Source: Blasia pusilla (Eukaryota). From it: a stretch of DNA of 64,000 bases. Each line of letters begins with the position of its first letter. Positions within the stretch are counted from its first letter, which is position 1. This document shows, one piece after another, positions 9,900-60,889 of the stretch. A program made the translations under genes and the position numbers. The notes beneath the pieces were generated by a model. That model saw only the letters and a list, made by a program, of their open reading frames with translations, made no database searches and was not told the origin of the DNA. The stretch spans positions 33,480,001-33,544,000 of the forward strand of contig CM114271.1 of assembly GCA_050084515.1 (NCBI GenBank), read 5' to 3'.

Positions 9900-9901
<2 letters not shown>

Positions 9902-17400: not shown

Positions 17401-17755
17401 AGTGATCGAGCGACGGCCAGGAGAGGTGGCGACCTTAGCAACATTTAGCAGTACCATCACTTGGCCTAGTGATTTGATTGAGGGACATGTCCATGCAGAG
17501 GATACTTCCGTTCCTGACATTTCTATGGAGAGGAGTGTTATGATAGCCGCATCATTCCGTGGAGGAGAGGTGTCGTTGTGGGGCTCGATTGAGGAGCTTC
17601 GACGATTGGCAGATGGGCACGTGGAGACCGCGTGGAGCAAGATGTTTGCATCGGAGCGTGATGTGTGTGAGGAACCCAAGGTAGCAAGGAGTGCTACGAT
17701 GACACCCTTGGATACCACACCCATTGTGTGATGTATCCCGGAGGAGGATATTTGA

Positions 17756-18680
17756 GTATTAGATCTCTTTGGAGGGATTAGCACCGGGTTAGCTGTTGTT
17801 TTGCAGGCAAGAGTGCGAGTGCAGCAGTACCTGTATATGGAGAGTGATGATGTTGCAAGGCGCATCTCACTACGACATGTGGCGCAGTTATGCCTACGTT
17901 TTCCTGACTTATTGTCTGCGTCCGCGGTACATGGATACTTGAGTTTCCTACCTAGGGATATTTTGTTGCTAGGGGCGTAAGACTTAGAGCGGGTAGGAAC
18001 CATTGATTTGGTCATTGCCCATTGGCTATGTCAAGGCCAATCGAGTGTTGGACGAGGCAGCGGGTTGGATGACACTCGGTCGAGGTTGTTTTGGGAGATG
18101 TTGAGGGTCTTACGATAGTTGCACGAGCACCACTCTCATTCTCCAGCCTACATTCTGGAGAATGTACCGATCTTAGGAGACTCCAAGTCACAGGTGGTGA
18201 GAAGGTGCGTGCCTGGATCGGCCCAACAGTGTTCTTGGATACGGCAAGTGTAGGTTCTAGAGCCTATCGCCCGCGTCTATGGTGGACCAACTTGGTGCCC
18301 CATGCGGTGTTACGGAGGGCGTATGCGAGAATGGAGCACCCCTCCCATTTGTTAGTGGATTCCATTCTAGATCCGGGTCGTCCATTAAGGCAATGAGGCA
18401 CGATGATTGACCACCCTTAACTGTGGTCAATAGGGTAGGCAGCCGCGGGCAGCCTTGTCCACGTTTGTGAGTTTTCCTGCTTCCTATGCATGCAAGGAGG
18501 CCGGGCCTAGCTTGGATTGGGATGACCAGGTTCAGCGGTTGGTGGAGCCCAACGCCGACGAGAGAGAGCGAGCGATGGGATTTCCCACAGGAGTGACAAC
18601 AATATCGTTAGTGTTAAAGGCATCATGACGCCATGTCTTGGGTCAGGCGATGGACTTGAACTGCTTGACATGGATCCTCA
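17756..18680 (+). pseudogene. Element 1 C5 DNA cytosine methyltransferase domain (DNMT3-like), decayed
   Basis: Motif I VLDLFGGISTG; II YMESD; IV DLVIAHWLCQG (GWPCQ in other copies); VI YILENVP; VIII RPRLWWTN; IX ERERAMGF; X LGQAMDLN, in canonical order. Confidence 0.9.
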
Positions 18681-19019
18681 GCTTGGGAGTGGTTGAGCAG
18701 CGTCGTATGAGATCGCAAGAGATCACAGCGGTTGAGTTTGTGAGCCCCATGCCTATCGAGACGATGGATGCAGTGGTTGGGGGCGAGACTCGAGGAGATC
18801 TACATACTAGGGAAGATCAGGAGAGACATCCTTGGACTTCTTGGGATGTTTTGCACGTACGCCAAGAGATGATAGCCATAGCATTGAGCGTAGTTCTGGT
18901 ACTACACGTGGAGGAGATCAGAGTTTGTAGTTAGCTGCAGGAGAGCGGCCGAATATTTTTGTTCGAGACGGGGTTGCACCATAGCAACCACCGCCTCACG
19001 TCGGAGAGTCCTACCGTAG

Positions 19020-21870
19020 TCATGATGGAGACTTGGGAGCCAGATATGGGCCTTAAGTTGATAAGAGGAGAGCGGCGCCGGATACATCAGTTCCTCAAGA
19101 GTTATAAGAGTTGCTTTGCCTTTAGTATGGAGGATTTGGGTACAATGAAGGGACCGGGGATCCGCATTGAGTTGTCGAGTGATACGCCGATCTTCCGACG
19201 ACCCTACAGGTACAGTGACATGGAGAGGGCTATGATTTAGAGTAGGAGCCAGGACTTGGTCGGAGCAGGACTAGTGGAGATGTCGCATGGGGAGTATGCA
19301 CCTGCCACTATCATGCCCGCCAAGAAGGATGTGCATGGCAACTAGACGGACAGACGGATGTGTGGGGATGACCGACCTATCAATTGGTAGATGAAGCCCG
19401 ATAGGTATGCCATGCCCATCCCTGAGGAGATCTTTGATACGATTGGTCACGCAAAGGTCTTCAGTTCATTGGATTTGCGAGTCGGATACCATCAACTGCC
19501 TATCAGACTGGAGGACAGGCAGAAGACGGTATTTTGGGGCATCGATCCTCACATGAAGGATTGTTTGTACTAGTGGCGGTTCTTACCATTTGGGTTAAAG
19601 AACGCCCGGGCTGAGTTTCAAAGGGTCATGGATAAGATCTTGGCTGGTCTGGATTTTGCTAGGTATTATATTGATGACATCGTAGTCTTTAGCGCCACGG
19701 TTGAGGAGCATGAGCGACATCTAGAGGAGGTGTTTCGACGATTGCAATTACATGAGCTGAAGCTACATCCAGGCAAGTGCAAGTTCTTCTATGACCAAAT
19801 TGAGTACTTGGGTCATACGATATATCAAGGGGCCTTAGTGTTCAACAGAAGAAGGTAGAGGCTATCTCTCGCATTCCACGCCCTACAGATGTGAGCCGTG
19901 TTTGCGCATTCATGGGATTGGCAAACTTCTATCAACGGTACGTCAAGGGATTCAATTCGATTGCAAAGCCGCTACCCTTGCTGAACAAGGTGGATCATGA
20001 GTGGCATTGGGGGGATGAGCATGAGCGAGCATTTCACTTGCTCAAGGACAAGTTGACATCCGCGCCCATCTTGAGGAGACCAATCAGAGGGCGTCCTTTC
20101 TAGTTGCACATAGATTTGAGCATGTTGGGGCTTGGAGCGGTGCTCACCCAACATGATGAAGAGGGTAGAGAGTTCGTGGTGGCTTACGCTAGCCGCTCGA
20201 ACAACGATGTAGAGGTGAAGTACAACTCGTATGAGGGTGAGTGCTTGGCTGAAGTGTGGGCTGTCGCGCATTTCAGGTGTTACTTATTCAAAATCCATTT
20301 ACCATCATCAATGATCATCAACCACTGAAGTGGTTGATGGAGTCTGACAAGCTTATAGGGAAGCTTGCAAGATGGGCTCTGTTGTTGCAGGAGTATGATT
20401 TTCAGGTGATACATAGACCTAGGACGCTCAACCAGGATGCAGATGGGTTGAGTTGTAACCCATTCCCAAGTCTGCGAGATGCGACTGGAGCTCGATGGCA
20501 TGGAGAGAGTGATGATGAGTCAGTGCCCAAATGGCACGCGTCAGGCTATTTAGGCATGTTGGCTATGGAGGGCCAGAGTGTGGAGACTTTGATGGCGATG
20601 TCTAGTGGAGAGTCCTTGGATCCCTAGGCCACTGAGGAGACGATAGGTAGCTGAGATATTCATGATGATGGAGTAGTCTTGGAGTACCTTCGTACTCACA
20701 CCGTTGTGAGCACCGTGGGTGCTAGAGAGCGGGATCGGATCCTACAGCGGGCCAGACGGTTCCGTTGGGAGGGGACTCATGTTTTGAGGGTTTGGGAGGA
20801 TGGTAGAGTACGCGTAGTGCCGCATCTTTTGCAGAGAGCACAACTAGTGCAACATTCCCACGAGGAGTTGGGTCACTTTGGGGTGAAGCGGACGTACAAC
20901 TTGCTCTAGATTCAGTATTGGTGGCGAGGCATGTAGACTGACGTTCAGCATTTTGTTGCCACGTGCATGGTGTGTGATCCGGTCCGAGCATCGTTCAATG
21001 CTCCAACTCCATAATTGCATCCATTACCGATCATGGGCTTAGGGTAAAGATGGAGTTTGGATTTTGTAGGACCTTTGCCTCTAACAAAACATCATAGTTG
21101 TTATGTGTTGGTGATGGTCGAGCACTTCTCGAAGTGGATCGAGTTGGTCACATTTCCTGACAAAGCGACTGAGGGAGTAGTTTATGCCTTCCTTGATAGA
21201 TTTTTGAGTCATTATGGCGCACCGGCTGAGGTGTTGACAGACCAGGGTATCGAGTTTTGCGGTGAGTTCTAGGCCTTGTGCGATCGGGCGTTGATCAACC
21301 ACCGCACGACTTCACGAGATCATCCCGAGGCAGATGGATTAGCGGAGAGAGTTGTGCAGACGATGAAGAGGGCTGAGCTGTTTCGGAGAGTGATGCCCAT
21401 GACGTTCGAGAACTTGGCGATTGGGCAGCATCGGGATACGTCGAGGTATGCAACTATTCGGGGTGGTGGTTATCGACCAACTATCCGGAAGTTTCATCAG
21501 GGAGATTATCTCTACTTGCAGCAGACGGCACCGACGACGTTGGATGTGACTGTAGGGCGCACTATCATGAGAGTGCGTGACGTTTTTCCATCCAGTATTC
21601 TCTTGCTCGAGGGACGCGATGGTATGGTATGGTATGGAAGGACCATATGCGTAAATGTGCGCCATGTCACCTTCCTAACATTGATGGTACAGTAGATCCA
21701 AGCTCACAGTAGTTCTTGCAGGCTTGTGTTGTATGTTGTGTGGTTCTGTTGATGGTGCGGCCACAATGCTAGTCTGTGATGGATGTTCGAGAGGTTGGCA
21801 TATGGCATGTCTGACGCCACCTCTCACTAGGGTTCCTCGGGGACGATGGATGTGTCCCAGATGTACATAA
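19020..21870 (+). pseudogene. Element 1 RT - RNase H - integrase - PHD finger, decayed
   Basis: LDLRVGYHQL, PFGLKNA, YYIDDIVVFS (RT); VVAYASR, DHQPLKWL, NQDADGLS (RNase H); HEELGHFG, DFVGPLP, TDQG, DGLAERVVQT (integrase); CMLC...CDGC...WHMACL...WMCPRC (PHD). Confidence 0.92.
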
Positions 21871-22058
21871 AGGAGATATTAGGTAGGTTTCAATTCCGAC
21901 TTTTTATGTGACATGGATGATAGGAAGGCGACTAAGGATGGGGCCACATGAGCACCCAGCCTTTCCGCTCTTAGCGTCCTAGAGATGTATGTCATGGTAG
22001 GTAGGGATAGATAGCTATCTGGAGTTAGAGGGACCTAACCATCAGCTAGGGGGGAAAT

Positions 22059-22807
22059 TGGAGATATTTTGGTACTTCTCGCCTCTGTGTATGGATGCCA
22101 TGAGTTAGCATGGGATCGTGTGTGTTTGTGTGTGTGTTCGATGACAGCGATGTATATTGTGTAGCGATGTGTATGCACACGACAACTATCAAGATTGTTA
22201 GGATAGATCGATGGGGTCTAGCAGAGCTTCTGCACGAGTAGTGGAGGACACACTCAAGAGGTCGAGGATGACGTGTTGAGGCCTCGGGAAAACGGAGAGA
22301 GCATGTTTCCCCTTCGTTTCGGCTCATTTAGAGACATATAGAGAAACTTACTATTTCGGGTAAGTTTCTATATTGGGGATAGTTGACTTTCCACTTTGGG
22401 AAGTGGCCCTTGACTTGCTACATTAGGTCAAAAGCCAAGGAGGTGACCTGTGAGCATAGGTTACCGTTGAGAGGGCTTGGGAGAGGGAAGGGGGTATACC
22501 TCCAAGAGAGAGAGCTTGAGAGCTCATCCTCTCTTTGTTCAACCTCTTGTCATAAGGCGGCGGAGCTATGGTCCCTTGCCTTGTGAGTGTAACCCAAGCC
22601 TCTCATTAGGAAAGTGGGTTTGGTTTGACATGAGAGAGAGTGCATACCTTGAGAGCTATTGTGTGAGATGGTGTAGAGAGAGATTGGATCTTACTTTATT
22701 GGAGATGTTTTGGTACTTCTCCCCTCTGTGTATGGATGCCATGAGTTAGCATGGGATGTGTGTGTTTGTGTGTGTGTTGGATGATAGCGATGTGTATGTG
22801 CACGAAA
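22059..22807 (+). repeat. 3' repeat block B1-A2-B2 of element 1
   Basis: B1 22059-22184 and B2 22700-22807 are direct repeats (TGGAGAT.TTTTGGTACTTCTC...GATGTGTATG.GCACGA) flanking A2; preceded by the PPT AGGGGGGAAA. Confidence 0.9.
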
Positions 22808-25508
22808 AAACTCCTTGATACCTCACACCACTCCGTGTCACTCCATTATCACTTCTCGTACTACCGCGTTCTTCCGAACCCTGAAAGAACACCGTGATGA
22901 TTACCCTCTCTCACCCGCTCAAGCACTCTGACTCACCAAGAGTCTCCCACACTCCTCACTAGCTCACCTACGCTTATGCTAATCCCGTTATAATACACCC
23001 GGCCTCACGCACACTCAACACTCGGACTCACCATAAGCCTCCCACTAACTCACATAAACTATTGACACTCTCGAGTCATACACGCGACCCGTACTTGGCA
23101 ACCCACATATATACACCAACATGCTACACATGAAAGGAGTCTACACTCATCACCATCGCTACACCCATCTACCACTAGCAACTACCCAAGACCCAACACT
23201 CTTAGTCACACAAGATAAGTGCAGGAAAAGGGACTCAAATGGATAACCTAAACATGCCCGCCAACCTATGGCAACATCAACACTCACTCCTCCATGTGGT
23301 GCGGCAACCTATGCGGCACGGCACTCTCCTCGACCAACACGTCAAACCTCCCGTCAATAGATGCAGACTACCCATCGACATCAACACCAATGTCTCCACC
23401 ACTAATCCTCCATCACCAACTGTCGGCACGAATCACAATCTCACCCCAATCAAGGCTAAAAGTATCACATCCCTATATCCTGAGTCGTGGAACACCTCCC
23501 ACTCCCAACTCTGAAAACTCCAACACACACCCGCTCAACCATGTACATTTTTGACCAATTACCTGCTCAACCACGCTGATCCCAACCTCATAACCATAGC
23601 CCTATTAAGTTCGCCCTTCCAACTCCGTAACCAGCTTCATCGGGGCCTATGGTGACTCGACCCGACAACTTACCTACGCAGCAGCCTCCCTTCTTAGGTC
23701 CACGCTAGCCCAACTTTATGGATCATCCGAAGCCTTTCCTTCTCCTCCCGGCATGCCTCCCTATGAGGGTGCGACGTAGTCCAACTCACTCCCGTGCGCC
23801 TGACTTCACATCCACGACTCCAATTCAGCCCCGCACAACTCTCTCCTTCCCCAACTTCCGCCTTGACCTTATGAGTTCACATGGCTCGATAGACAGACCT
23901 CTTTGGTCTACGTCAAGGTCGGGGGAGTTTTTTCGTGACAACCGGTACATTTCCGGTCTCTACAAACCCGAGCGGCAATTTTTGAAGTTTTCTTCATTCC
24001 AGCTGGCTAAACAGGTACGAATGCAAAGGACACCCTCTCTGAACCTCCGGTTTTTGGCCGGTAAATGACGACGTGAATGGAAATTCTCAAATTCTTCCGG
24101 CCAGCTCAACACGTAACCCCGGTTCTCCCCGGACATTGATCTACGTCGTACTCAATGTGGGCACGCCGCCCTATGCGACGCGTCTCCCCTCTCTGCCAGC
24201 CCCATTTCCTTGGAGCCATAATGGCTCCTCCCGTACCTCCTTTGTTCCTAGAGCTCCGGGCTCCTTCCTTCCTCCGAATCTGGCCAAGCCCTCCCTCGCT
24301 TACCGCTCTCTCTAACATGCCCATCCTTGTACATACCTCAATGCACGCCTTCCTATGTGGAGGTCTCTCGTCCTCCTATTCCTCAGTTGTGCGTGGCTCC
24401 CTTGCCCGCCAGCTGATTCCGTTGCACGCAGCCTTGCTCCATAGCTGCCGTGCATGCAACCCTGACCTTAACCCCCGAAATATTTCATTACTTCTCCCGG
24501 TGTCTATCAGCATTGGTCCGCATCCCTATGCGAGACTCTACATCTCCTTGCGTGAACCCACGGCCCGCGTCCTTGCCCAACCGCTTAGACCTAAACCTCC
24601 CACATAAACTGCACAACCTAAATCTAGCCGACCTAGCCTCCTTTAACCTAGATGCCTTTACTTGATAGCCCCTCAAAGGCTACAAGCCCTCAATTGTGCT
24701 TCCCTCTCAACACTCTTGCTATGCGTCATTGTATCAACGCTCCAACACTTTGCGCTACACCCGAGTGCTCTTGCCCGACCCCCACTTTGCTGTTGTTCCT
24801 CGGCACCCGCACTAGCAAGATCTGAGAAAAACAAACAGCGCTTCCACGCCCAATATCCCAAACAAAAGAATTTTGAAAATATAAACGCCAACCCGCGTCT
24901 CCAGGGGCTAACGACCGAGGCAAATCGCTTGCCTACCTGCAAACAAGGAATTCCCACCTGGCCCTTCACATCTTTCTCTAAGCCTATTCCACCTCTAAAC
25001 TTGTTTATTGAGGGGGAGAATTTGACTATAAACCAACAGACATTGCCTAGTGCAAGATTAAGAGAGATCCTAGATTCTTTAGTTAAATCTATCAATCCAT
25101 GGTCAGGAGGAGTAGATATTAAGTTTATTGATACTAGTTATAACTCAAGTAAGATGTTAGAGCCATCCACTTCTAAATAGTGACTTTGTAGATCAAATAA
25201 AGTCACACATCTTGTTCATAGAATCATAAATAAGGGATTCCTTGTAATGCATCATGTATATATGATGACTTCCCTTCAAGAACAAGAACCAAGTTTTTTT
25301 AAGAAGCTACATGTAAGGTAAAATATATTGAAGCATTGGAGGAAGAGCTTAGTGCATTAAGACATCTACAGACTTGGGAATTGGTTGATATATATTCCGA
25401 TAAGGAAGCCATTGATTGTAGATGGATTTACAAAGTCAAGCGCAATCAACAAGGAAAAATGAATAAATACAAACCTAGATTAGTAGCCAAGGACTATGCT
25501 CAATTATA

Positions 25509-28500
25509 TGTTGTGCGCATACACATTGTTACACAACATACATCGTTGTCACCCAACACACACACAACCACGCACGATCCCATGCTAACTCATAGCATCC
25601 AAACAACGAGACAAAAAGTACTAAAATATCTCCAAGAAAGTAAGATCCAATCTCTCTCTACACCATCTCACACCATAGCTCTCAAAGGTGTGCACTCTCT
25701 CTCATGTCAAACCAAACCCACTCTCCTAATGAGAGGCTTGGGTTACACTCACAAGGCAAGGGACCATAGCTCCGCCGCCTCATGCCAAGAGGTTCAACAA
25801 AGAGAGAATGAGCTCTCAAGCTCTCTCTCCTTGAGGTATACCCCTCCCCTCACCCAAGCTCTCTCCATGGTAACCAATTCTCCCGAGTCACCTCCTTGAC
25901 TCTTGATCCAATGTAGGAGGTCAAGGGCCACTTACCAAAAATACAAAGTCGATCATATACTCAAAATGGTACTTACCTAAAATAGTGAGTTCCTCAATAT
26001 GGCTCCAAATGAGCCGAAACGAAGGGGAAACCTGCTCTCTCATGTTTCCCGAGGCCTCAGCAGATCATCCTCGACCTAATGAGCGTGTCAGCCACTACTC
26101 ACGAAGGCGCTCTACTAGATCTCACTGATCTATCCTAAAAGACGTGATAGTTGTCGTGCGCATACACATCGCTACACAACATACATCATTATCACCGAAC
26201 ACACACACAAACACGAACGATCCCATGCTCACTCATGGCATCCAAACAACGAGACAAGAAGTACTAAAATATCTCCACTTTCCCCCTTAGCTCGTGGTTA
26301 GGTCCCTCTAACTCTGTAGGATCCGATCCCGCTCTCTAGCATCTACGGTGCTCGCAACGTTGCCAGTACAAAGGTACTCCAAAACTACTCCATCATCATC
26401 AATATCTCGGCCACTTGTTATCTCCTCACTCGCCTCGGGATCCAAGGACTCTCCACTAGACCTCGCCATCAAAGTCTCCACACTCTGGCTCTCCATAGCC
26501 AACATGCCTAAATAGGCTGACACGTGCCATCTTGGCACCGACTCCTCATCACTCTCTCCATGCCATCGAGCTCCAGTCGCGTCTCATTGACTCGGGCATG
26601 GGTTACGACTCAACCCATCTGCATCCTGGTTGAGCGTCCCACTTCTATGTACCATCTGAAAATCATACTCGTGCAACAACAGAGCCCATCTCGCAAGCTT
26701 CTCTGTAAGCTTGTCGGACTCCATCAACCACTACAGTGGTTGATGATCAGCAATGATGGTTAAGGGATTGCCAAATAAGTAACACCTAAAATGTGCGACA
26801 GCCCACACCGCAGCCAAGCACTCACCCTCATACGAGCTATACTTCGCCTCTGCAACATTGTTTGAGCGGCTAGCGTAAGCCACCACGAACTCTCTACCCT
26901 CATCATCATGTTGGGTGAGCACCGCTCCAAGCCCCAACATGCTCCAATCTGTGTGCAACTCGAAAGGACGCCCCCTGATGGGTCTCCTCAAGGTGGGCGC
27001 GGATGTCAACTTGTCCTTGAGCAATTGAAATGCTCGCTCATGCTCATCCCCCAGTGCCACTCGTGATCCACCTTGGTCAGCAAGGTCAGTGGCTTTGCAA
27101 TCAAACTGAATCCCTCGACGTACCGCCGATAGAAGTTCGCCAATCCCATGAATGCGCAAACACGACTCATATCTATAGGGCGTGGAATGCGTGAGATGGC
27201 CTCTACCTTCATCTATTGAATACTAAGGCCCCCTGGGTATATCGTATGACCCAAGTACTCAATTTGGTTGTAGAAGAACTTGCACTTGCCTAGATGTAGC
27301 TTCAACCCATGTAATTGCAATCGTTGAAACACCTCCTCTAGATGTTGCACATGCTCCTCAGCCGTGGCGCTAAAGACTACGATGTCATCAATATAATACC
27401 TAGCAAAATCCAGACCAGCCAAGATCTTATCCATGATCCTCTGAAACTCAACCCGGGCGTTCTTTAACCCAAATGGTAAGAACCGCCATTGGTACAAACA
27501 ACCCTTTCCGTGAGGATCAATGCCCCAAAATACCGTCTTCTGCCTGTCCTCCAGTCTGATAGGCAGCTGATGGTATCCGGCTCGCGAATCCAATGAATTG
27601 AAAACCTTTGCATGACCAATTGCATCAAAGATCTCCTTTAGGGATGGGCATGGCATACCTATCGGACTTCGTCTGCCGATTGATAGGTCGGTAATCCCTA
27701 CACATCCGCCCGTCCGTCCAGTTGCCATGCACATCCATCTTGGCGGGCATGACAGTGGCAAATGCATACTCCCCATGCGACATCTCCACTAGTCCTACTC
27801 CGACCCAGTCCTGGCTCCTACTCTAAATCATAGCCCTCTCCATATCACTATACCTGTAGGGTTGTCGGAAGATCGGCGTATCACTCGACAACTCAATGCG
27901 GATCCACGGTCCCTTCACCGTACCCAAATCCTCCATACTAAAGGCAAAGCAGCTCCTATAACTCCTCAGGAACTGATGTATCCGGCGCCGCTCTCCTCTT
28001 GTCAACTTAGGGCCCATATCTGGCTCCCAAGTCTCCATCGTGACTACAATAGGACTCTTCGGCGCGTATATCCGTGGTTGCTATGGTGCAACCCCGTCTC
28101 GAACATCAACACTCGACCGCTCTCTTGCAACCAACCGCAAACTCTGATCTCCTCCACCTGCAGTGCCTGGAACCACGCTCGATGTTGTGGCTATCATCTC
28201 CTGGCGTACCTACAAAACATCCCAAGAAGTCCAAGGGTGTCTCTCTCGATCTCCCATGGTGTGGCGATCTCCTCGGGTCTCGCCCCCAGCCACTGCCTCC
28301 ACCGTCTCGGTAGGAATGGGGCTCACCAACGCAACTGCTGTGATCTATCGCGATCTCATACAACGCTGCTTAGCCACTCCCAAGCTGAAGATCCATGTGA
28401 AGCAGTTCAGGTCCATCGCCTGACCCAAGACATGGCATCGTGAAGCCTCTGATAATGACGGTACTCCCGTCACTCATGTGGGAAATCCCATCGCCCGCTC

Positions 28501-30845
28501 TCTCTCGTCGTCATTCGGCTCCACCAACCTCTGAACCTGGTCATCCCAAACCAAGCCAGGATCGGCCTCCTTGTATCCATAGGAAGCGGGAAAACTCACA
28601 AACGTGGGAAAGGCTACCCGCGGCTTGCCTACCCTGTTGACCATAGTCAAGTTTGGTCAATCATCGTTCCTCATTGCTTGTGAGCGATGACCTAGATCTA
28701 GAATGGAATCCACTAACAAATGGGAGGGGCGCTCCACTCTCGCAAACGCCCTCCGTAACACCGCATGGGGCACCAAGTTGGTCCTGCATAGACGCGGGCG
28801 ATTGGCTCTAGAACCTACACTCGCCACATCCAAGAACACTGCTGGGCCGATCTAGGCACGCACCTGATGATCACTCGTCACCACCCGTGACCTGGAGTCT
28901 CCTAAGATCGGCACATTCTCTAGAATGTAGGGTGGAGAACCATAGTGGTGCTCCTGCAACCGCCGTAAGACGCTCAACATCTCCCAAAACAACCTGGACC
29001 AAGTGTTAGCCAAGCCACTACCTTGTCCAACACTCGATTGGCCCTAACATGGCCAACCAGCAATGACCAAATCAATGGTGCCTAACCGGTCTAAGTCCTG
29101 CACCCCCAACAACGAAATATCCCTCGGTAGGGAACTCTGGTACCCCTGTACCGCGCACGCAGAAAATAAGTCAGGAAAACGTAGGCGTAACTTTGCCACA
29201 TGTCGTAGTGAGACACACCTCGCAACATCATCACTCTCCATATACAAATACTGCTGCACTCGCAATCCGCTCCACAATGACAATGCGGCTCCGCGATCGA
29301 GACGGTGCGGTGCGGCCACAAGCGGCACGGCGCGGAAATCGGTGGTGCGTTATGGCTACAGGCGTCACCGCACGATACTTGATCATTGTCGAGCGGCTAC
29401 CAATCACAACATAGCAACATGAAATCAAAACTCAAACACCATAACCGGAGGTCATCTACCATCACTGGTTGATGACGAAACTGCGATGACGGTGGTGGCC
29501 AAACCAAAGTACGTGGTGGTGGCACAAGTCGGAGAATCAATGGTGGTCGTGGAAGACCCTCCACTTCGTAATGGCGGCAATGGCAACCAAAGGGTGGACA
29601 ATGGCGAATGCAGCTCTGAGCAACGTTGTGCAACGACAACGGCCGACTGTGGCGGTGGTCGGTGGACCGTTGATGGTGATGGTTGACCGTTGATGGTGAC
29701 GATGAACCGTTGATGGTGACGGTTGACAGTTGACCGGTGATGGTGACTATGACGACGACGGCCGCCGCCGACGTGGCGGCTGGTTTAGGGTTTGAACAAT
29801 TTAACCCTAAAAATTGCCTAGCAATGGCAATTTTGCAAGATTGACCATAACTTTTTACTCGCAACTCCAAATTGTATACCGTTTGTTGCACAATGTTCAC
29901 AACTTCACGATCTACAATAAAGTTAAAAAATATTTGGAATTGGACATTCCAGTAAAAACTGACAAGGACTCTTATAAATCCCAATGTCTCTTTCTACTAC
30001 ACAAAATTTGGCAGCGCTTCCGCGCTAATTTCTCCCAACCAAAATGTAAAACCTGTAAAAATACAAATCAGCAAGCTACATGGTGCTCTTGAGAGCACCG
30101 GCATGGGGCAACCCGCCCCCATGATCAATCCCTATCAAAATTGGACAGCGCTTCCGCGGGCCATTCTTCCACACGAAAAATCAGCAAATGCAAAGAACAA
30201 TCAAAGCAACCCTTGCTCCGGTGAGCACTCCCATGAGCCGTTGAACAAGAAACACGGTCCCCAACCTGCAGAAACAACAAGTGACTAGCGAGCTCCCCCA
30301 TGAAGCTCTCTCACTCTCTCATTCTCTCTTTCTAAAGTAAGATCCAATCTCTCTCTACACCATCTCACACCATAGCTCTCAAAGGTGTGCATTCTCTCTC
30401 GTGTCAAACCAAACCCACTCTCCTAATGAGAGGCTTGGGTTACACTCACAAGGCAAGGGACCATAGCTCGCCGCCTCATGCCAAGAGGTTCAACAAAGAG
30501 AGAATGAGCTCTCAAGCTCTCTCTCCTTGAGGTATACCCCTCCCCTCACCCAAGCTCTCTCCATGGTAACTTATTCTCCCAAGTCACCTCCTTGATTCTT
30601 GACCCAATGTAGGAGGTCAAGGGCCACTTACCAAAAATATAAATTCGATCATATACTCAAAATGGTACTTACCTAAAATAGTGAGTTCCTCAATATGGCT
30701 CCAAATGAGCCGAAACGAAGGGGAAACCTGCTCTCTCATGTTTCCCGAGGCCTCAGCAGGTCATCCTCGACCTAATGAGCATGTCCGCCACTACTCACCA
30801 AGGCGCTCTACTACATCTCACCGATCTATTCTAAAAGACGTGACA
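25509..30845 (-). mobile_element. Element 2: internally deleted copy of the element 1 family with intact TG...CA ends and 4-bp TSD (TATA)
   Basis: A1 30334-30845 (starts TGTCACG); leader ~29270-30330; deletion removes gag, protease and DNMT motif I; DNMT remainder ~28390-29265; RT-RNase H ~26600-28040; deletion removes integrase and PHD at ~26315; PPT ~26279-26288; B1 26152-26277; A2 25637-26149; B2 25509-25634 (ends GCACAACA). TATA at 25505-25508 and 30846-30849. Confidence 0.93.
28390..29265 (-). pseudogene. Element 2 DNMT domain (motifs II-X), decayed
   Basis: YLYMESD, RDISLLG, DLVIAGWPC*G, YILENVP, RPRLCRTN, ERERAMGF, LGQAMDLN. Confidence 0.87.
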
Positions 30846-31773
30846 TATATTGCATCTATTATGATGAGATTTTTAGTTGTGTTGCAAAGATGATAATTAC
30901 GAGAATAGTGGTTATAGTTGCAGTGAGTAAGAAGTGGAGACTAGATCATATGGACGCCAATAATTCCTTCTTGAATGGAGATCTGCTTGAGGAGGTATAT
31001 ATGGCTCAACCGCCTAGATATAAGCAATGAGAATTTCCATTCTGCGTATGCAAGTTAAAGAAAGCTCTATATGGGCTCAAGGAAGCTCCAAGAGTTTGGT
31101 ATAACAAAATTATATAGTCCTACAAGAGTTTGGCTTTAGGATTTGTGATTATGATTCCTTTTTATATATCTTGATAGGATAAGGCCATACGATTATCATT
31201 ATGTTTTTTTTATTTAGGACCTCTTGATTATAGGGAGTAACAAGGATATGATATATCAAGTCAAACTAAAGTTACAAGAAAAAATTGATATGAAGGATTT
31301 AAGAGAACTCAATTACCTCCTTGGTGTTGAATTTATTAAGGTTGGAGAGAGCATAAGGTTATTAAAATGAAAATATGCTCATCACATGCTTTCAAAATAT
31401 GGTATGATTACTTGTAAGCCAATCTCTACACCGTTGGACCAGAGTGCAACGCTAAGAGTGGATGAAGGAGAGTTGCTTGCAAGCACATGGTTGGAAGTTT
31501 GATCTATCTGACTATAACTAGGCTAGACTTGAGTTAGACATTTGGCCTAGTGAGCCACTTCATGGAAGCATCTCGAAAATCTCACCTTCATGTTATTAGG
31601 AGGATAGTACGTTATGTGGAATTCCTTGTTTAGTCTGTGCTTCAATTTGAATCTTCTCCGAATTTACAATTACACGGATTCATAGATGTTGATTAGGCAA
31701 GAAGCGTTTATGATAGACACTCTACATCTAGTTATTACTTTACCTTGGGAAGTGAGTTGGGCTTTAAAAAACC

Positions 31774-34700
31774 AACATAGAGCGAGAGTATCCACAAACA
31801 CAAGTGTACCACAACTCGCCCTCCTAACTGGCAGTTAGGTCCCTCTAACTCCCAGGTAGTCCTATACATCTACTACATGCTATACACCTTTTTGGGTGCC
31901 CGAATCAGAAGGCCGGGTGCTAGGTTGCCCCATCGTTAGTCGCACATCTGTAATCCATATCATCGTATATGTTGTATGGACGTATGGATGTTGTTCCTAC
32001 TGGAAGGTGGGTTTGTCCATGATACGTGGAGTCAAACACATCATGTGCCAACCCCTAGAACACCGATCACACACCAACATACGGGCTGCGTTACCAGCAG
32101 ACCCACACAACATGCACCTCAAGCTAGCACGTATCATGGCTAAGCTTGGGTCAACAGTACCATCCACATTTGGAAGATGACATGGCGCACAATTACAACT
32201 CCATCACGACCCTCCAACATGAGAACTCCAGAAGCTAACATCTCGCGCACTCGTAAAATAGTGCGGCCTGCCGTCACATCCAACGTTGTCGGTGCAATCT
32301 GCTGCAAATAGACATAGTCCCCCACATGGAACCTACGAATCGATGGTCGATAACCTCCACCCCAAATGGTTGCATACCGCAAAGTATCCCTATGTTGAGC
32401 AATGGCAAGATTCTCAAAGGATGTTGGCATAACTCTCCGAAAGAGCTCTGCCCGCTGAGAACACATTCTCATCCACATCTCTAGGTCATCAAGTTTCACC
32501 ACCTCACTAGACTCCCGACCAATTGCTGCTGGCAAGTCTGGATCTCGGCCGTATAACAGAAAATAAGGTGAGAAGGAAGCCAAGGATGCTTGGCGACTGA
32601 ACCTATACCCCATGGCTAACCATGGCAATCGAATATCCGGTCTCCAAGATGCCCCTTCTGAGGCTATACTTGCGCAATGCCCTCTTCACTGTCTGAACCA
32701 CACGCTCAGCCAAACCATCCGCCTCTGGATGATCTCGAGACGTGGTCCGATGATCAATCAACGCCTTGTCACACAAGACCTGAAACTCACCCTGAAACTC
32801 TGTACCCTGGTCGGTCAACACTTCAGCTGATGCACCAAAATGACTAAGCACTCTATCAAGAAACGCATACGCCGTTCTCTCACTTGCCTTGTCCGGTAAT
32901 GCCGCCAACTCAATCCACTTGGAGAAGTGCTCCACCATCACCAACACATATTGATGATGTCGTACAGTCAACGGTAACGGTCCTGCAAAGTCCACACTCC
33001 AACGATAACCCAACCCCATAATAGGCAAGGGGTGTAATTGTGGTGTAGGGGCATTGAATGATGCCCTCATCCGGTCACAAACCATACAACGTGACACCAA
33101 TTGCTGCACCTGAGTATGCATGCCACGCCACCAATTCTGGCCAAGGAGTAAGCTATACGTACGCTTTATCCCAAAATGTCCCAACTCCTCATGGGCATGT
33201 CGCACAATGCGCTCTCTCTGAGCCAAATGTGGCACTACTTGTACTCTACCATCCTCCCACACGCGGAGAATATGTGTTCCCTCCAATCGATACCTCTTAG
33301 CACGTTGAAGAACACGGTCTCGCTCCTTGGCACTCACTATGCCTGGCACCCTACTGGTCCGTAGGAACTCCAACACCAACGCATCATCATGAATATCACG
33401 CTTATCTGTACCACCATCTCCAACCTTAGGATCTAAAGGCTGGCCATCTACCCTCTGACTAGAGTAAGATATCATGTGATCCTCCATACTAGAGTCCACC
33501 CCTAACCAACATAAAAAGGCGGATGCATGCCAACCTGGCACCATCTCCTCATCAACCTCGTCGTGCCATCTAGCCCCGATTGTATCCTCTTGGCTAGTAC
33601 ATGGGTTCCTACTCAACCCATCAAGCATCAAGGTTGGCAACTCCAGGTCTATGTACCACCCGGAAGTCATACTCTGTAAGATAAGCGCCCACCATGCAAG
33701 CTTCCTGTAAGCTTGTCGACTCCATCAACCACTTGAGCGGCTAGTGATCGAGTAACAAGGGTAAACGTGTGCCAAACAAGTAACATCTAAAGTGTGCCAC
33801 ACCCCACACTCTTGCCAAGCACTCTCCCTCATATGAATTATAGCGCGACTCCGCTGCATTATTCGAACGACTTGCATAGGCCACCACAAACTCCATGTGC
33901 TCATCATCATGTTATGTCAACACCGCTCCAAGTCCTAACCTACTCCAATCAGTGTGTAACTGAAATGGGCGCCCTCTGATAGGTCTCCTCAAGATAGGCG
34001 CCGCCACCAACTGGGCCTTAAGCTCCACAAAAGCTCTCTCCTGATCATCTCCCCAATGCCACTCTTGATCTGATTTCAGAAATTGGTTCAAAGGCTTTGC
34101 CATAGCACTAAATCCCTTCACATACCTCCGATAGTAGTTCGCCAATCCCATGAATGCTCGAACTCTACTCACATCTACCGGACGCGGAATAAGTGCAATA
34201 GCCTCCACCTTTGCTTGCTGAACTCCCAAACCACCTAGATAGATCACATGACCCAAGTACTCAACATCCTCATGGAAGAACTTACACTTTCCTAGATGCA
34301 AACGTAGACTATGAGCTTTCAACCGCTCAAACACCATCTGCAAATGTATATGATGCTCCTCCACCGTGTTACTGAACACCAAGATATCATCAATGTAACA
34401 CCAAACAAAATCCAACCCTACTAGGATCCTGTCCATCACTCTCTGAAACTTGGCAGGTGCATTCTTCAACCCAAAGGGCAAGAATTTCCACTCGTACAAA
34501 CAATCCTTGCCATGAGAGTTGACACCCCAAAATGATGTCTTGGCCTTGTCACTCTCCCAAATCGGCAATTGATGGTATCCTGCCCGAAGATCCAAAGTAT
34601 TGAAAATCTTTGCTTGTCTCACCACATCAAAGATCTCCTCAGGTGTAGGCATGGCATACCTATCGGCCTTGGTTTGCCGATTGATAGGACGGTAATCTTC

Positions 34701-37700
34701 ATACATTCGCCTATCCGTGTAGTTGCCATGCATATCCTTTTTAGCAGGCATGACAGTGGCTGATGCATACTCTCCATGCGACAACTCCACTAATCCAGCC
34801 TCCAAAAGGTCCAACGTCCTACTCTCAATCAGGTCCCTCTCCATATCATTATATCGGTAGGGACGACGGAAGATTGGCGTATCACTAGCCAAATCAATCC
34901 GTATACCGGGTCCAACCAGAGAACCTAACTCCTTCATGCTAAAGGCAAAACAACTCCTATAAGCACGTAGGAACTCTGTCAAGCGTCGTTTCTCACCTCC
35001 CGTAAGCTTGGGCCCAAGTAATGGCTCCCAAGTCTTCTCCACTGGCACACTAGAGGGAGAGGACGATGCCATTGGCTGCTACACAACCCCCTCACAAGAT
35101 GGTACACTCTTAGCTACACCATCATCTGAGCAAATAACTCCTCCACCAGTGGAACATTCTCCAGAATGTAAGGTGGAGCACGTGCTTGATGAACCTGAAG
35201 ATGTCGTAACACCCGTAACATCTCCCAAAACAATCGAGACCTAAGGTCGTGTAATCCCTCACCACGACCTGCACGTGTATGACCCTGACATGGCCATCCA
35301 GCAATCACCAAATCCACAAGACCAACCCTCTCAAGGTCCTGCGCCCCCAACAATGCAATGTGCGACGGCAAAGCACGTTGGTACCCACGAATAGCTGATG
35401 GCGGCAACAACTCAGGATATCTCCGCATCAACTGACCAATATGTCGGGATGAGACTCTCTGGGCCATCTCATCTCGCTCCACATACACGTATCTCTGCAC
35501 AGGAATACCGACCTACAACACTTCATCCAAACCAGTGCTAATCGCACCAAAGAGATCTAACACACAAATGCCCTCCAGCGCAGATACTGCCATACAATGG
35601 GTGTAGTATCCAAAGGGGATAACCCAACTGGACCAGAAGTAGGAGTCCGCCATGGGGTCTCCTCTTCCTCGTGAGGTATAACAGCCTCACACCAAGCCTC
35701 CTGCACTAGGCGATCACCCTCCTGCCGTAGTGCACCGCCTGAACTCCAAAGTGGCACATCCAATGATGAGGATGTCACGACTGCAAAAATAGGGACCTCC
35801 TCTACCTCCTCATGCGCAAGAGAATCCATAGCAGAAACATTACCCTCCAAACAGTCTCCTGGCCAAGTGACTACTCCACTAAAACCAGCCACAGATGCTA
35901 ACACTTTGTTGGGGAAGACCCTCTGGTCGAGCCCCAAAATAAATCTCACAGAACTTGGCTCATACGTCCATCCCGGACTGCCAACCAGGTCTATAAGACA
36001 CTGTCTCGATCCGATAATCCATCTGAAAACCCATCGGGTACAATCTGCTCCTCCAACTAGTACATCATACGACTCGGTGATGTGACTACCGTGAGATACT
36101 CCCAACCGGGAGCTATCATCACATGATCTGGTCTCAACATGCAGAAAACTTCTCCCGTGTCATGAATTGAGACCTATCATTGGCTCCTCCAAGTGATGTT
36201 TGAATCTGGAATGGGCAAGGCTCAAGCTCGACCTCCGAATACCCAAACCAATACATGCCACCTTTCCCAACATCAAGGTTGGGCACCGTGAGTCTAACAA
36301 GACTCTATCTGGTCTATACACCTGTCCTGTAGGACTCACCAATCGGAAGATCCTACTCCGGTTGTCCAACATACATACACCAGGTGTAAGCCTCTCACGA
36401 TCAATTGCTGGCCGGGCTGGTAATGCATCCATCTTCACCGCTGCTGCCTGGCAAGTAGCACTGGTACTCAATGCTACACCTGACATAGAGGGTCGCTCAA
36501 CCGCAACACCCTCATCCACCTCAACACATGTAGCAGTAACACCCCCACGTTCGCACAACGTGGCTGCTAGCTGAAATACAGGAGCTAAGTCAACTCCTAA
36601 AGCCATCAGCTCCGTGGCCGAAAACAATGGAGATCCCAACATTGAAGTTGCCATCCCCAATACTGCACTGGATGCTGTATCTGTGTCTACTACACGCGAT
36701 GTAGGATGTAGATGCCTCAGTCCCCACTGTCGGCTCAATAGGCTGCGTAGGAACCATGGATGGAGTCCTAAGCACCTCAGACAACAAGAATGAATGGGGA
36801 AGCCTAGCCTGCCTCCCAGCCTCACCCCTCAGTGGGTCCAACTCACAAAGAGCACCAAGTGGCTCTGACGCTCGAGTGGCTCCTCTCATAACTGCAGCTG
36901 ATGCCTCAACCTGTGATGCACTCGCCATATAAGAGAGATCATCCCCTCCATAAGAGGTGGAAGCCCCTGCTCCCGAACCTGATCTATGTTGGATATCAGC
37001 CATATGAGCCAACTTCTGCTCCAATTGCTCAATCGGCAACCATAGCGACGACTGTCGTAGTGGTAGGGGTAGCCACCGTAGGCTCTCCAACCACTGGTCC
37101 ACCTCTACCACCCCTACCACCTCTACCACGTCGGCCTCTCAGAGCTACTCCACCACGGCCGCGGCCTGATCTCAACTCTGGATGAAGATCAAAGCAACGC
37201 TCTCGAGGATGACCTGGTCTCCCGCAATGATCACACTAAGTTGGGGCTGATTGAGGCCCATCCTCCAAAGTTCGTCTCCCATCCTCTTGGGGACAAAACT
37301 TCCTAACATGATCACCTCCACATGTCCAACATAACTGTCCTTGCTACGGGGCAACAAATAAAGGCAATGGTCTCTGCGCAAGTGTCCCTCTAGGACCTGA
37401 CTGAGGTCGAGTGTACCCCCCACAACTCCCACTACTACTACCACCACCACTACTACGAGACTGTGAGGTGGGCTGGTGAACACGAGAAGTAGTAGTTGTA
37501 TCCCTACTAAATGCGGATGTCACCACTCTCTCCTTTACCATGTTAAGCTCAATCTTCTTAGATAGAGCAAACACATGGGTCAATGTGGATGAATCATCAC
37601 TCATAAGAGTAGCATCAGATACCCTACGGCGCAAATCTCTGTCCAAGATCCCATACCAAAACTGGACTGTCTGATCCTCAATCACACCCTGGGTAACTGA

Positions 37701-39205: not shown

Positions 39206-39610
39206 TAGTGGCTTGGTAGAGATGCGGTTTCATACATAGGGTTGGGGGTTACTCAGTTGGGGATGACTTTCCCAGTAGGGCCCGCTCTTAGGTTGGAGGA
39301 TATAAGGTGGAGTGCACTCAACCTAAGAGTCAATTTTTGAGTTGAGCCTGTTGCGTTGGGAGTTAGCCTTGGTAGTGAGTAGAGCTCTTGGCTATGGTGT
39401 TTCCCGCAAGCTTCGACCTAGATTCTCCCATCGTGGAGTGGGTTTGGCTCGATTGTATGTGATTCTATACGTGTTTTATGACAATAGGTCTTTCACGGAT
39501 TTCAGTTTTGGTACACTTGTGTTTGTGGATACTCTCGTCTATGTTATGTATGTTTGTGAGTATGGTATGTCAGCGATGTATGTTGTATGACGATGTGGAT
39601 TCGCACAACA
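39206..39610 (+). repeat. Partial A plus complete B terminal repeat of the element 3 family, in opposite orientation to the element body
   Basis: ~39509-39545 TGGTACACTTGTGTTTGTGGATACTCTCG.CTATGTT matches the reverse complement of 31774-31812; ends with the family terminus GCACAACA at 39610; TATA-like GATATAAG at ~39299. Confidence 0.75.
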
Positions 39611-57527: not shown

Positions 57528-57665
57528 TTATCTCGGACACATCCATCGTCCCGTGGAAACTACATCAAGAGGGGGGGTCAGACATGACATATACCACCCT
57601 CGAGAACAACCATCACATACCAACATGGTGGTTGCACTCCTCGCAGATCCGCACAACATACACCT
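57528..57665 (-). pseudogene. PHD finger at the integrase C-terminus of element 4
   Basis: CMLCGSARSATTMLVCDGCSRGWYMSCLTPPLDVVSTGRWMCPR fits the C4HC3 PHD pattern (His replaced by Tyr, last Cys lost in this copy). Confidence 0.85.
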
Positions 57666-60600: not shown

Positions 60601-60889
60601 AACCTCCAACTTTGGTTGCTACGTAGCAACCGTAGCCACCTCCGCAACAACCACTCCACTTTGACCTCCTACACCATGCTTCACATCCAAAAAATGAACA
60701 TGTGTTGCTCTGGCTGCCTTTGCACTCTCTGCTCGAGCGACGTCCAAGAAAGTCCATGGGTGCCAATCTCTTCTTGTTTCGGCCCCAGCCAATGCATGTA
60801 CAGACCCTGTAGGCAATTGTCCAACTTATGGTCGTGATGGCATGGATGACACTTGCATTAGTTTTTTCTCAGCCATATCTAGGTTGACT

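Follow-up and report, generated by a model that had tools for sequence, protein, structure and literature searches.

Architecture of the elements in the window

The window, a 64,000-nucleotide stretch of the genome of the liverwort Blasia pusilla, contains old, decayed members of the streptophyte Gypsy-DNMT3 retrotransposon family. Element 2 has the following features:

30846..30850, minus strand, 5' copy of the target-site duplication (TSD) ATATA; flank read directly, with own-pair versus mismatched-pair control
30334..30845, minus strand, repeat A1; alignment to A2, first bases TGTCACG
30494..30509, minus strand, candidate self-primer within A1 (A positions 337-352), complementary to the sequence directly after A1
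30318..30331, minus strand, putative primer-binding site (PBS) AAAGAGAGAATGAG, 2 nt past the A1 end; complementarity to the A1 segment
26278..30333, minus strand, internal region with gag/protease, DNMT and RT-RNaseH, all decayed; alignment to element 1, Pfam, tblastn
26278..26288, minus strand, polypurine tract (PPT) AAGGGGGAAAG, adjoining the first base of B1
26152..26277, minus strand, repeat B1, starting TGGAGAT and ending ...CGACA; alignment to B2
26143..26158, minus strand, B1/A2 junction CACGACA-AC-TATCACG, decayed from the palindrome CAyGACA-GC-TGTCAyG of the family
25637..26149, minus strand, repeat A2; alignment to A1
25633..25638, minus strand, A2/B2 joint: A end, one or two odd bases (CT), B start; read from the sequence
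25509..25634, minus strand, repeat B2, ending ...GCACAACA; alignment to B1
25505..25509, minus strand, 3' TSD copy ATATA, whose first A doubles as the B2 terminus when B2 is taken to end in CA

The order A1-internal-PPT-B1-A2-B2, which the preliminary description of this DNA had read from element 2, is confirmed by alignment: A1 (30845-30334) and A2 (26149-25637) are 96.7% identical (511 nt), and B1 (26277-26152) and B2 (25634-25509) are 91.3% identical (126 nt). TG opens A1 and CA closes B2 at the outer ends of the element. The flanks read ATATA/TG and, if the B end is taken as ...AAC, ...AAC/ATATA, which gives a 5-bp TSD; on the alternative reading, with B ending at CA, the TSD is the 4-bp TATA. 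The inspected flank contains no B 5' of A1. The RVT_1 domain is located at 27213-27788 (Pfam). Element 2 is without the integrase-PHD part as the result of a deletion with its joint at 26314 (alignment to element 1; tblastn), and RNA reads depart from element 2 at the same position and enter element-1-like sequence.

The remaining copies of the family in the window are arranged as follows:

12784..13304, plus strand, element 1, repeat A1; alignment
13127-13143, plus strand, element 1, candidate self-primer segment in A1; complementarity to the PBS
13305-13319, plus strand, element 1, putative PBS directly after A1
13305..22056, plus strand, element 1, internal region, decayed DNMT-RT-RNaseH-integrase-PHD; Pfam, tblastn
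22057..22826, plus strand, element 1, B1 22057-22184, AC, A2 22187-22698, B2 22699 to about 22826; alignment
31774..39335, minus strand, element 3, rearranged copy with integrase, RT-RNaseH and DNMT; Pfam, alignment
39336..39610, plus strand (opposite to element 3), partial A (positions 174-328) fused to a complete B, which ends ...GCACAACA
56682..57445, minus strand, element 4, B1 57445-57302, AT, A2 57299-56820, B2 56819-56682; alignment
57446..64000, minus strand, element 4, internal region with rve, RNaseH, RT and DNMT remnants; Pfam, tblastn

Element 1 has the layout of element 2 (A1-internal-B1-A2-B2), as had been described, with the PPT AGGGGGGAA ending at 22056. It opens with TC rather than TG, and the end of its B2 is decayed. 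Within the window, the earlier claim of a TSD holds for element 2 only, and no TSD was found at the flanks of element 1. The B1-A2-B2 end of element 4 is built, as stated before, from repeats unlike those of elements 1 and 2, except for a likeness near the B end. The B pair of element 4 is 87-91% identical, and the PPT GGGGGACG lies directly upstream of B1. Element 4 runs past the end of the window, and its A1 would fall outside. Element 3 lacks its 5' end and retains just the first 42 nt of B1, which stops at 31774; the segment 39504-39545 is 95% identical, in inverted orientation, to this B1 stub. The window copies are dead, and every copy studied is decayed.

Split-repeat layout in the family

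The A...B-A-B layout is a trait of the family and not a peculiarity of the window. The layout was sampled in 80 metagenome loci, which were retrieved using proteins of relatives. B-A-B follows pol in 22 independent loci from several assemblies, and A1 is also visible in ten of the 22. Neither B nor A-B is present upstream of A1 at any of the 17 visible 5' ends of metagenome loci, which extends the earlier observation that no B precedes A1 of element 2. The conventional LTR pair, B-A-int-B-A, occurs at none of 19 visible 5' ends (the 17 loci and elements 1 and 2). The forms that had been predicted, A-int-B-A-B, A-int-B and solo A-B, were all found. The A-int-B elements L002 and L010 carry perfect TSDs, and the TSD of the solo A-B in locus L060 matches at four of five positions; these two forms could equally have arisen from later recombination between B1 and B2 or between A1 and A2. 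Locus L009 ends in B-A without B2, and B2 of locus L046 is truncated; later damage is the only explanation that we offer for these ends. The A1/A2 and B1/B2 identities are alike within an element (for example 86.8/86.9, 90.7/92.3 and 90.7/93.0), which fits both pairs having been identical at insertion.

Termini, target-site duplications and junctions

The termini of the family are TGTCAyG at the start of A and CAyGACA at the end of B. Tabulation of ends and TSDs among the copies, a check that had been proposed, shows that the A...B unit is flanked by TSDs. In the 14 elements with both ends defined, the own-flank 5-mers match on average at 3.71 of 5 positions and five are perfect, whereas mismatched flank pairs (n = 182) match on average at 1.71 of 5 positions and none is perfect. 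The TSD of the family is 5 bp long. It is poor, with at most three of five positions matching, in 6 of the 14 elements (L014, L016, L038, L064, L042 and L053).

The layout could be secondary: copies may have been rearranged by chance, a unit circle A-int-B may have recombined into a solo A-B that was already present, or the assembly may be wrong. Old, nested and rearranged copies do exist in the window, for example element 3. However, the same arrangement is found in three window copies, the 22 independent metagenome loci and the published Klebsormidium family; the TSDs enclose the whole A...B unit, and the A1/A2 and B1/B2 identities within elements are similar. A secondary origin is hardly credible, and we regard it as close to refuted.

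The B/A boundary of the family is the palindrome CAyGACA-GC-TGTCAyG, the halves of which are the genomic termini. The length of the B1/A2 junction is invariant in all 23 loci listed, and its variants are mainly transitions from CAGCTG. We propose, from its sequence, that the B1/A2 junction of element 2 is an internal integrase site. The A2/B2 joint is exact in 9 of 17 independent loci (one subfamily). The other eight joints differ by -2 (twice, with AT microhomology), -3, +1 (twice), +4, +6 and one complex change, and the joint states are dispersed over the tree of the repeats. To judge by this spectrum, the A2/B2 joint looks like a DNA end-join.

Candidate priming sites and transcript

The segment 30494-30509 of element 2 is proposed to be a Tf1-type self-primer and the 5' end of the transcript. 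It provides a 14-nt exact complement with a duplex energy of -21.8 kcal/mol, and the corresponding duplex of element 1 has -23.8 kcal/mol; neither value was equalled in 200 shuffles. The TATA-like sequence GGGTATACC is positioned 28 nt 5' of the candidate self-primer segment in the A2 copy of element 2. Read in the sense of reverse transcription, A1 of element 2 is proposed to comprise the 3' part of U3, with the TATA-like box, followed by R and U5.

Pairing between a segment of A and the 18 nt that follow A1 is matched by none of 200 shuffles for L014, L016, L017, element 1 and element 2, and by at most 9 of 200 for L019, L034 and L047. The pairing is significant in 8 of the 18 cases tested and not significant in the other 10 (shuffle test). 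The paired sequences after A1 vary by subfamily (TAGTTTTTCTA, GTTCTTTGAG and CTCATTCTCTCTTT), and the pairing segment starts about 30 nt past a TATA[AT]A box in L014, L016 and L034. What the sequence shows for a proposed Tf1-type self-priming is the complementarity, with co-varying partners, and the distance from the TATA box. Since none of the 18 post-A1 sequences begins with TGG, the putative PBS of the family is not of the tRNA type. A G-rich run adjoins the start of B1 in 20 of the 23 loci listed and in elements 1, 2 and 4. The putative PBS after A1 and the G-run at the start of B1 agree with the earlier prediction of a cDNA with LTR = BA, and their positions would define the LTR of reverse transcription as B+A. 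The near-identity of A1 and A2 keeps RNA reads from placing the transcript start or the poly(A) site.

These sites bear on a scheme in which A-int-B-A-B is itself the linear cDNA, with primers at the B1/A2 junction: the minus strand would be primed on the A2 start and the plus strand from the B1 end, so that LTR = A·B, and neither the G-run nor the post-A1 complement would have a role. An A·B repeat has proper TG...CA ends, and just 2 nt separate CA and TG at the junction, as in LTR-PBS spacing. However, the B1 end is not purine-rich and the A2 start matches no tRNA-type TGG PBS. The scheme does not account for the conserved G-run precisely where B1 begins, for the co-varying complement precisely where A1 ends, or for the A2/B2 indels, and we did not succeed in working out on paper how it would give the product seen. 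We consider this scheme very unlikely.

Encoded domains and classification

The family has the domain order DNMT-RT-RNaseH-DDE integrase-PHD, and intact relatives have conserved the DDE-type integrase. Protein P0014 aligns collinearly with every window copy, and its DNMT region is matched in elements 1-4 (tblastn). The integrase noted earlier in elements 1, 3 and 4 is recovered as a tblastn match to P0014 residues 865-1273 in element 1, as Integrase_H2C2 and rve in element 3, which also contains RVT_1, RT_RNaseH and PF00145, and as Pfam rve in element 4. The statement that no recombinase is visible was likewise borne out: the tyrosine recombinase PF00589 was not detected in 79 six-frame ORFs of at least 75 aa, in 10 further 5'-region ORFs, or among the precomputed Pfam domains of 120 listed relatives. 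Homologs of the window RT include proteins of Klebsormidium, Closterium, Chara and Marchantia. The K. nitens proteins P0026 and P0041 are 47% and 40% identical to the window RT, and could be the published KnitGypsy-Dnmt3 copies.

The family shares with Ty3/gypsy elements RT, RNase H and a C-terminal Gypsy-type DDE integrase, TG...CA inverted termini with a TSD in the range of 4-6 bp (5 bp, perfect in 5/14), and a PBS beside the 5' repeat (8/18 loci) and PPT beside the 3' repeat (20/23 listed loci). In place of two identical LTRs, one at each end, its genomic form is A...B-A-B. It has two characters of the Gypsy-DNMT3 (KnitGypsy-Dnmt3) group, a C5 cytosine methyltransferase domain in pol and DIRS-like A-coding-B-A-B repeats combined with Gypsy domains. 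PAT/Ngaro/TOC1-type elements of the DIRS order encode a tyrosine recombinase and are not known to generate a TSD. The window family resembles them in the split direct repeats A1-coding-B1-A2-B2, always so oriented, and in carrying a methyltransferase domain. It differs in having a DDE integrase (rve) where these elements have the recombinase, TG...CA ends and 5-bp TSDs.

In a DIRS- or Ngaro-like route, the internal B1-A2 would be the template on which a circular cDNA is closed, insertion would fall to a tyrosine recombinase of the host or one acting in trans, and the DDE integrase would be unused. The repeat layout is identical to that of PAT/Ngaro/TOC1-type elements and of SymbioDIRS-Dnmt3, drawn as 'A-coding region-B-A-B' (PMC5890265). 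However, the TSDs and the inverted ends are hallmarks of an integrase, the integrase is conserved in intact relatives, and the search for PF00589 was negative in all 89 5'-region ORFs and the 120 listed relatives. Such a route is highly improbable.

Proposed integration mechanism

We hold it to be somewhat probable that the window elements are decayed Gypsy-DNMT3 copies that were reverse-transcribed conventionally, that the integrase cut a palindrome inside the LTR, and that end-joining sealed the cDNA tips. The permuted LTR, suggested in the preliminary description, is supported by the PBS, PPT, B/A palindrome, 5-bp TSDs and A2/B2 indels taken together. The anatomy, TSDs, range of forms, joint heterogeneity and complementarity are read from the sequence, from which we infer every enzymatic step.

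The TATA-driven transcript would begin within A, and its first 11-16 nt would fold back on the sequence adjoining the A1 end to prime the minus strand, as in Tf1. Plus-strand synthesis would start from the G-run polypurine tract, at the base with which B1 opens. Given these two priming points, the predicted cDNA is B·A-internal-B·A, with LTR = B + GC + A. The recognition ends of the integrase, TGTCAyG ... CAyGACA, would lie not at the tips but back to back inside the LTR, where they form the palindrome of the B/A boundary. The integrase would cut the palindrome of the left LTR after CA on both strands, producing a processed A1 start and B end, both of which would then be joined to target strands staggered by 5 bp. 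The original cDNA tips, the A2 end and the B start, would be end-joined before or after insertion to give A1-int-B1-A2-B2. Cutting of both LTR palindromes would yield A-int-B and solo A-B. The left LTR would become double-stranded long before the right one, and its site would be cut first.

Alternatively, the linear B·A-int-B·A could be ligated into a 2-LTR circle, which the integrase would open at one B/A boundary and insert. This circle shares its anatomy with the model of a cut in the left LTR, the A2/B2 indel spectrum is as expected for a circle junction, and integrase cleavage of circle junctions has a precedent, discussed below. However, the circle has two identical B/A palindromes, and a single cut should yield the mirror isomer A-B-A-int-B as often as A-int-B-A-B, whereas a double cut yields neither. 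A-B-A-int-B is present at none of the 19 visible 5' ends (17 loci and elements 1 and 2), against 25 B-A-B 3' ends (22 loci and window elements 1, 2 and 4). The absence of the mirror isomer argues against a symmetric 2-LTR circle, the part of the earlier permuted-LTR proposal that is not supported, and we consider the circle unlikely. In the model of a left-LTR cut, the earlier maturation of the left LTR would explain why the mirror isomer is missing.

The left-LTR cut may represent a third integration route for LTR retroelements, in which a DDE integrase makes an obligatory cut at a perfect palindrome in the middle of the LTR and the host end-joins the tips; we regard such a route as quite possible, though short of probable. 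If it exists, the A...B-A-B layout would result from circular permutation of the LTR relative to the att ends and would not be a signature of a tyrosine recombinase. The same logic might explain PAT/Ngaro/TOC1 elements and link the Gypsy with the DIRS elements.

Relation to known systems

Tf1 and Tf2 of fission yeast use self-primed reverse transcription, in which the 5' end of the transcript is complementary to the PBS and serves as the primer after cleavage by RNase H. The window family is similar in that its candidate transcript 5' end, about 30 nt past a TATA box, complements the sequence adjoining U5. The LTRs of Tf1 form an ordinary pair whose tips are the integrase ends, whereas the proposed integrase ends of the window family are internal to the LTR.

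Foamy-virus and HIV-1 integrases cleave the palindromic LTR-LTR junction of 2-LTR circles (PMC1180852, PMC1905944). The likeness is that of a DDE integrase acting on an internal palindrome of two abutted ends, which in the window family is proposed. In these viruses the palindrome forms only after circularisation, as a side path, whereas in the window family it is present in every LTR and its cleavage would be obligatory.

DIRS-type repeats together with Gypsy domains are not new: this pairing was already stated for KnitGypsy-Dnmt3 of Klebsormidium in one sentence of a figure legend (de Mendoza et al. 2018, PMC5890265). As in the window family, the DNMT domain of KnitGypsy-Dnmt3 resides within a Gypsy-type pol; the window copies differ in coming from a liverwort and in being decayed. 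Section 9 and the figure legends of PMC5890265 contain no mention of a PBS, PPT, termini, TSD or integration mechanism. New here are the Tf1-like self-priming site, the PPT at B1, the identity of the B/A palindrome with the termini, the 5-bp TSDs and the A2/B2 indels. With this anatomy, what had been a single published line becomes a concrete hypothesis open to bench tests; it is built mainly on a self-primed PBS, a PPT at B, a 16-bp palindrome with the genomic termini as its halves, an end-joined A/B seam and the occurrence of just one of two possible isomers. The hypothesis bears on the use of internal rather than terminal ends by integrases and on a possible origin of the DIRS-type architecture.

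Split direct repeats serve to class retroelements as tyrosine-recombinase elements of the DIRS order. The Gypsy-DNMT3 family shows that elements arranged in this way can possess a DDE integrase of working type and have TSDs. An LTR finder of the standard kind would take A1 and A2 for the pair, and its calls of the 3' end, the PPT and the TSD would be wrong.

Anatomy of the split-repeat elements in the window

The window contains four decayed copies of the retrotransposon family, in which the repeat pieces A and B are arranged as A1-internal-B1-A2-B2. Self-comparison of the window bore out the coordinates assigned to the split-repeat elements in the preliminary description.

Repeat pieces of the retrotransposon copies in the window
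30845-30334, minus strand: A1 of element 2, 96.7% identity to A2
26277-26152, minus strand: B1 of element 2, 91.3% identity to B2
26149-25637, minus strand: A2 of element 2, 96.7% identity to A1
25634-25509, minus strand: B2 of element 2, 91.3% identity to B1
12784 to ~22826, plus strand: element 1, with the layout of element 2
57445-56682, minus strand: B1-AT-A2-B2 of element 4, with largely different A and B sequences

In the sense orientation, A1 of element 2 starts with TGTCACG after the flanking sequence ATATA, and B1 is directly preceded by AAGGGGGAAAG. The boundary of B1 and A2 reads CGACA-AC-TATCACG, that of A2 and B2 reads ACTTT-CT-TGGAGAT, and B2 ends with GCACAACA next to the flanking TATAA. 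Element 1 opens with the dinucleotide TC, the end of its B2 is decayed, and no target-site duplication (TSD) was found at its ends. The 5' end of element 4 is positioned outside the window, and element 3 is a rearranged member of the family. Stop codons are abundant in all four copies; translation of the whole frame of element 1 contains 112 of them.

B1 of element 3 ends after 42 nt (31774-31816). A complete plus-strand B begins at 39504 with an inverted copy of this stub (95% identity), and the final half of an A lies before it (block 39336-39610). The arrangement appears to reflect an inversion, either inside one copy or between copies. The pieces are 76-86% identical to a moss-metagenome subfamily represented by loci L007 and L039. 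Two further repeats were detected. The 5' coding region of element 2 contains four copies of a unit of ~20 nt (GACCGTTGATGGTGA...), recorded as overlapping repeats of 40 nt (29645-29751), and a tandem duplication of ~64 nt with 89% identity is located outside the elements (7343-7471).

Domain organization and family assignment

Pfam domains DNA_methylase, RVT_1, RT_RNaseH_2, Integrase_H2C2, and rve were identified in element 3, rve and RNase H in element 4, and RVT_1 in element 2, from which the integrase part is missing. All four copies are collinear with the intact 1516-aa relative P0014, which has the domain order DNMT-RT-RNaseH-integrase-PHD. Among the matches listed, the nearest reverse transcriptase relatives are from the liverworts Calypogeia (81% identity) and Marchantia (72-81%), and the remoter ones from Klebsormidium, Closterium, and Chara. 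The window elements belong to the streptophyte 'Gypsy-DNMT3' group.

The methyltransferase occupies two positions among relatives. It precedes the reverse transcriptase (DNMT-RT-RH-IN-PHD) in P0014, the Marchantia proteins, and all window copies, whereas the relative P0069 has the order RT-RH-DNMT-IN-PHD. The difference may reflect shuffling of domains or capture of the methyltransferase on a second occasion. The first order was found in all eight sources checked (seven loci and the window).

The Pfam domain Phage_integrase was absent from 79 six-frame open reading frames of at least 75 aa in the 5' regions of three window elements (1, 3, and 4) and two metagenome loci (L014 and L064), and from ten more in L016 and L039; the only domains identified there were an aspartyl protease and, as a weak match, a gag zinc finger. 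PF00589 was likewise absent from the precomputed Pfam lists of the 120 relatives listed.

Repeat layout among relatives

Metagenome contigs were scanned with nine intact relatives, which yielded 80 loci, and reference A and B pieces were mapped onto all of them. Loci with the same flanks (L015 and L016, L042 and L043, L065 and L066, L018 and L021) were counted once.

Repeat layouts in the metagenome loci
A...B-A-B, two sides visible: 10 independent loci
B-A-B straight after pol, 5' side beyond the contig or undetected: 11 independent loci
B-A-B, reverse strand of L066: 1 locus
A...B-A, contig edge at the end: 2 loci
B-A without B2 or with truncated B2: 2 loci (L009, L046)
B followed by unrelated flank: 12 loci
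Solo A-B: 1 locus (L060)

A1 is also visible in three of the 12 loci in which B is followed by flank (L002, L010, and L053). Neither B nor A-B was found upstream of A1 at any of 19 visible 5' ends (17 loci and elements 1 and 2). Together with the counts of the individual forms, this indicates that the forms predicted in the preliminary description are present and the conventional one is absent. Loci L027, L049, L069, and L076, with 28-42% identity to the query and either short LTRs of the usual kind or overlapping contig ends, were set aside as outside the family.

The split-repeat layout, which was the central observation of the preliminary description, is real and well described, and it is not new: both the family and its unusual repeat order are already known. 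A figure legend of de Mendoza et al. 2018 (PMC5890265) remarks on it for a Klebsormidium Gypsy-DNMT3 member, and in the accessible part of that paper this is a single remark without a mechanism. Our search, which covered that source in part, found no other literature on integrase elements with split repeats. The contribution of the present analysis is the anatomy, together with a testable mechanism in which the integration route is a proposal.

In two loci, a further copy is located close to the fetched one and points the other way. L066 has a B-A-B block (9279-9967, minus strand), and L060 has a solo A-B (6060-6526, minus strand; flanks AAAGT/AAAAT). These copies suggest clustered or nested insertion. 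In DNA sequencing run X1, the contig depths summed across A and B of element 2 (25587-26147) come to ~10 times those across the internal region (26335-29139); such depths do not measure copy number, and they may point to numerous solo A-B or LTR-only remnants in the host genome. Joints returning from B1 to B2 in the DNA contigs may represent A-B-A-B arrays or, equally, a cycle in the de Bruijn graph; they were left out of account.

Putative priming sites and the LTR of the reverse transcript

None of the 18 sequences following A1 starts with TGG, and thus there is no primer-binding site of the tRNA type. Instead, the 18 nt following A1 are complementary to a segment within A. The pairing was equalled in none of 200 shuffles for L014, L016, L017, and elements 1 and 2, and in at most nine of 200 for L019, L034, and L047; it was not significant in the other ten of the 18 copies tested, which are taken to be decayed. 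The paired sequences vary between subfamilies with the complementarity kept. The paired segment starts ~30 nt 3' of a TATA[AT]A box in L014, L016, and L034, and in element 2 the TATA-like sequence GGGTATACC is located 28 nt upstream of it. In the retrotransposon Tf1, the 5' end of the transcript primes minus-strand synthesis. The complementarity of a segment at the putative transcript 5' end to the sequence after A1 resembles this self-priming.

B1 is directly preceded by a G-rich purine run in 20 of the 23 loci listed and in elements 1, 2, and 4. According to the rules of reverse transcription, the positions of the pairing after A1 and of the G-rich run at B1 define an LTR composed of B, 2 nt, and A, which supports the earlier proposal of an LTR with the order BA.

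Element termini and the B1|A2 palindrome

The genomic termini, TGTCAyG at the start of A and CAyGACA at the end of B, are mutually inverted copies. The 5 nt before TG were compared with the 5 nt from the terminal A in 14 elements with both ends defined. Flanks of the same element matched on average at 3.71 of five positions, with perfect 5-bp duplications in element 2, L002, L010, L032, and L039, whereas mismatched flank pairs (n = 182) matched at 1.71 positions with no perfect pair. The flanks of L014, L016, L038, and L064 match at just three positions, and a TSD is absent from L042 and L053. The end of B always has A after ...GAC (14 elements), and eight of the 14 have A at position -5 of the 5' flank; therefore, the TSD is either 5 bp long with a preference for A as its first base, or 4 bp long beside a CA end.

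The same two ends meet at B1|A2, where they read CAyGACA-NN-TGTCAyG, with constant length in all 23 loci listed. The most frequent form of this junction, CATGACAGCTGTCATG, is perfectly palindromic over 16 bp. Most variants (AC, GT, AT; TA for TG) differ from it by transitions, which may originate from deamination at methylated CHG sites. A reading in which the variable 2 nt are made anew in each cycle was dropped, because GC, AC, GT, and AT, as well as the change from TG to TA at the start of A2, are all transitions from CAGCTG.

The A2|B2 seam and a proposed integration route

At the A2|B2 seam, the end of A (U5 end) is positioned against the start of B (U3 start), as expected for the junction of a 2-LTR circle or for end-joined cDNA tips. 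The seam is exact in nine of 17 independent loci of one subfamily; the remaining eight have changes of -2 (twice, with AT microhomology), -3, +1 (twice), +4, and +6, and one complex change. These states scatter over the tree of the remaining repeat sequence, indicating that sister copies differ at the seam. The repeat alignment contains further indel hot spots, but those are common to groups of copies. From these comparisons, we read the A2|B2 seam as probably formed anew at every insertion.

A 2-LTR circle opened at the B|A boundary of one LTR, the route of the preliminary description, would produce such a seam. However, since a ligated circle contains two identical palindromes, single cuts should generate A-int-B-A-B and A-B-A-int-B equally often. 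The latter was found at none of the 19 visible 5' ends, compared with 25 B-A-B 3' ends including those of the window. Its absence leads us to prefer an order in which cutting precedes joining. The left LTR would become double-stranded at the second strand transfer, well ahead of completion of the right LTR, and integrase would assemble first on the left palindrome, holding the start of A1 and the end of a small B fragment. Cutting after CA on both strands of the palindrome would create two ends, each with a recessed CA-3'OH and a 5' overhang of 2 nt, and such ends are the normal substrate of integrase strand transfer. The host would join the old cDNA tips. Additional cutting of the right palindrome would give A-int-B and A-B products.

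Expression of element 2 relatives

RNA reads from three runs with the same species label as the best-matching DNA datasets were compared with element 2, to which 1707, 1883, and 1740 reads aligned. Almost all are 90-95% identical to it, and only 7-18 reads per run reach at least 99%. The reads are strongly biased to one strand, which, if the libraries are stranded, means that they derive from element 2 relatives transcribed in the sense direction. At 26314 they switch to element-1-like sequence, indicating that the expressed relatives retain the integrase part. The RNA depth drops sharply beyond 25587-30822. Owing to the 97% identity between A1 and A2, the reads gave no placement of the transcript start or poly(A) site. 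In run X23, heterogeneous loose ends (agreement 0.51) are located exactly at 26147 and 26152, as expected for a start of A and an end of B that border many different genomic flanks.

A skip of 26842-27912 (1071 nt, minus-strand RNA) was present in 12, 23, and 9 reads of the three RNA runs and absent from all X1 DNA contigs. An intron was rejected: the skip lacks GT..AG ends at the allowed offsets, and its ends have 4 nt in common. These features indicate that it is probably a transcribed deletion derivative.
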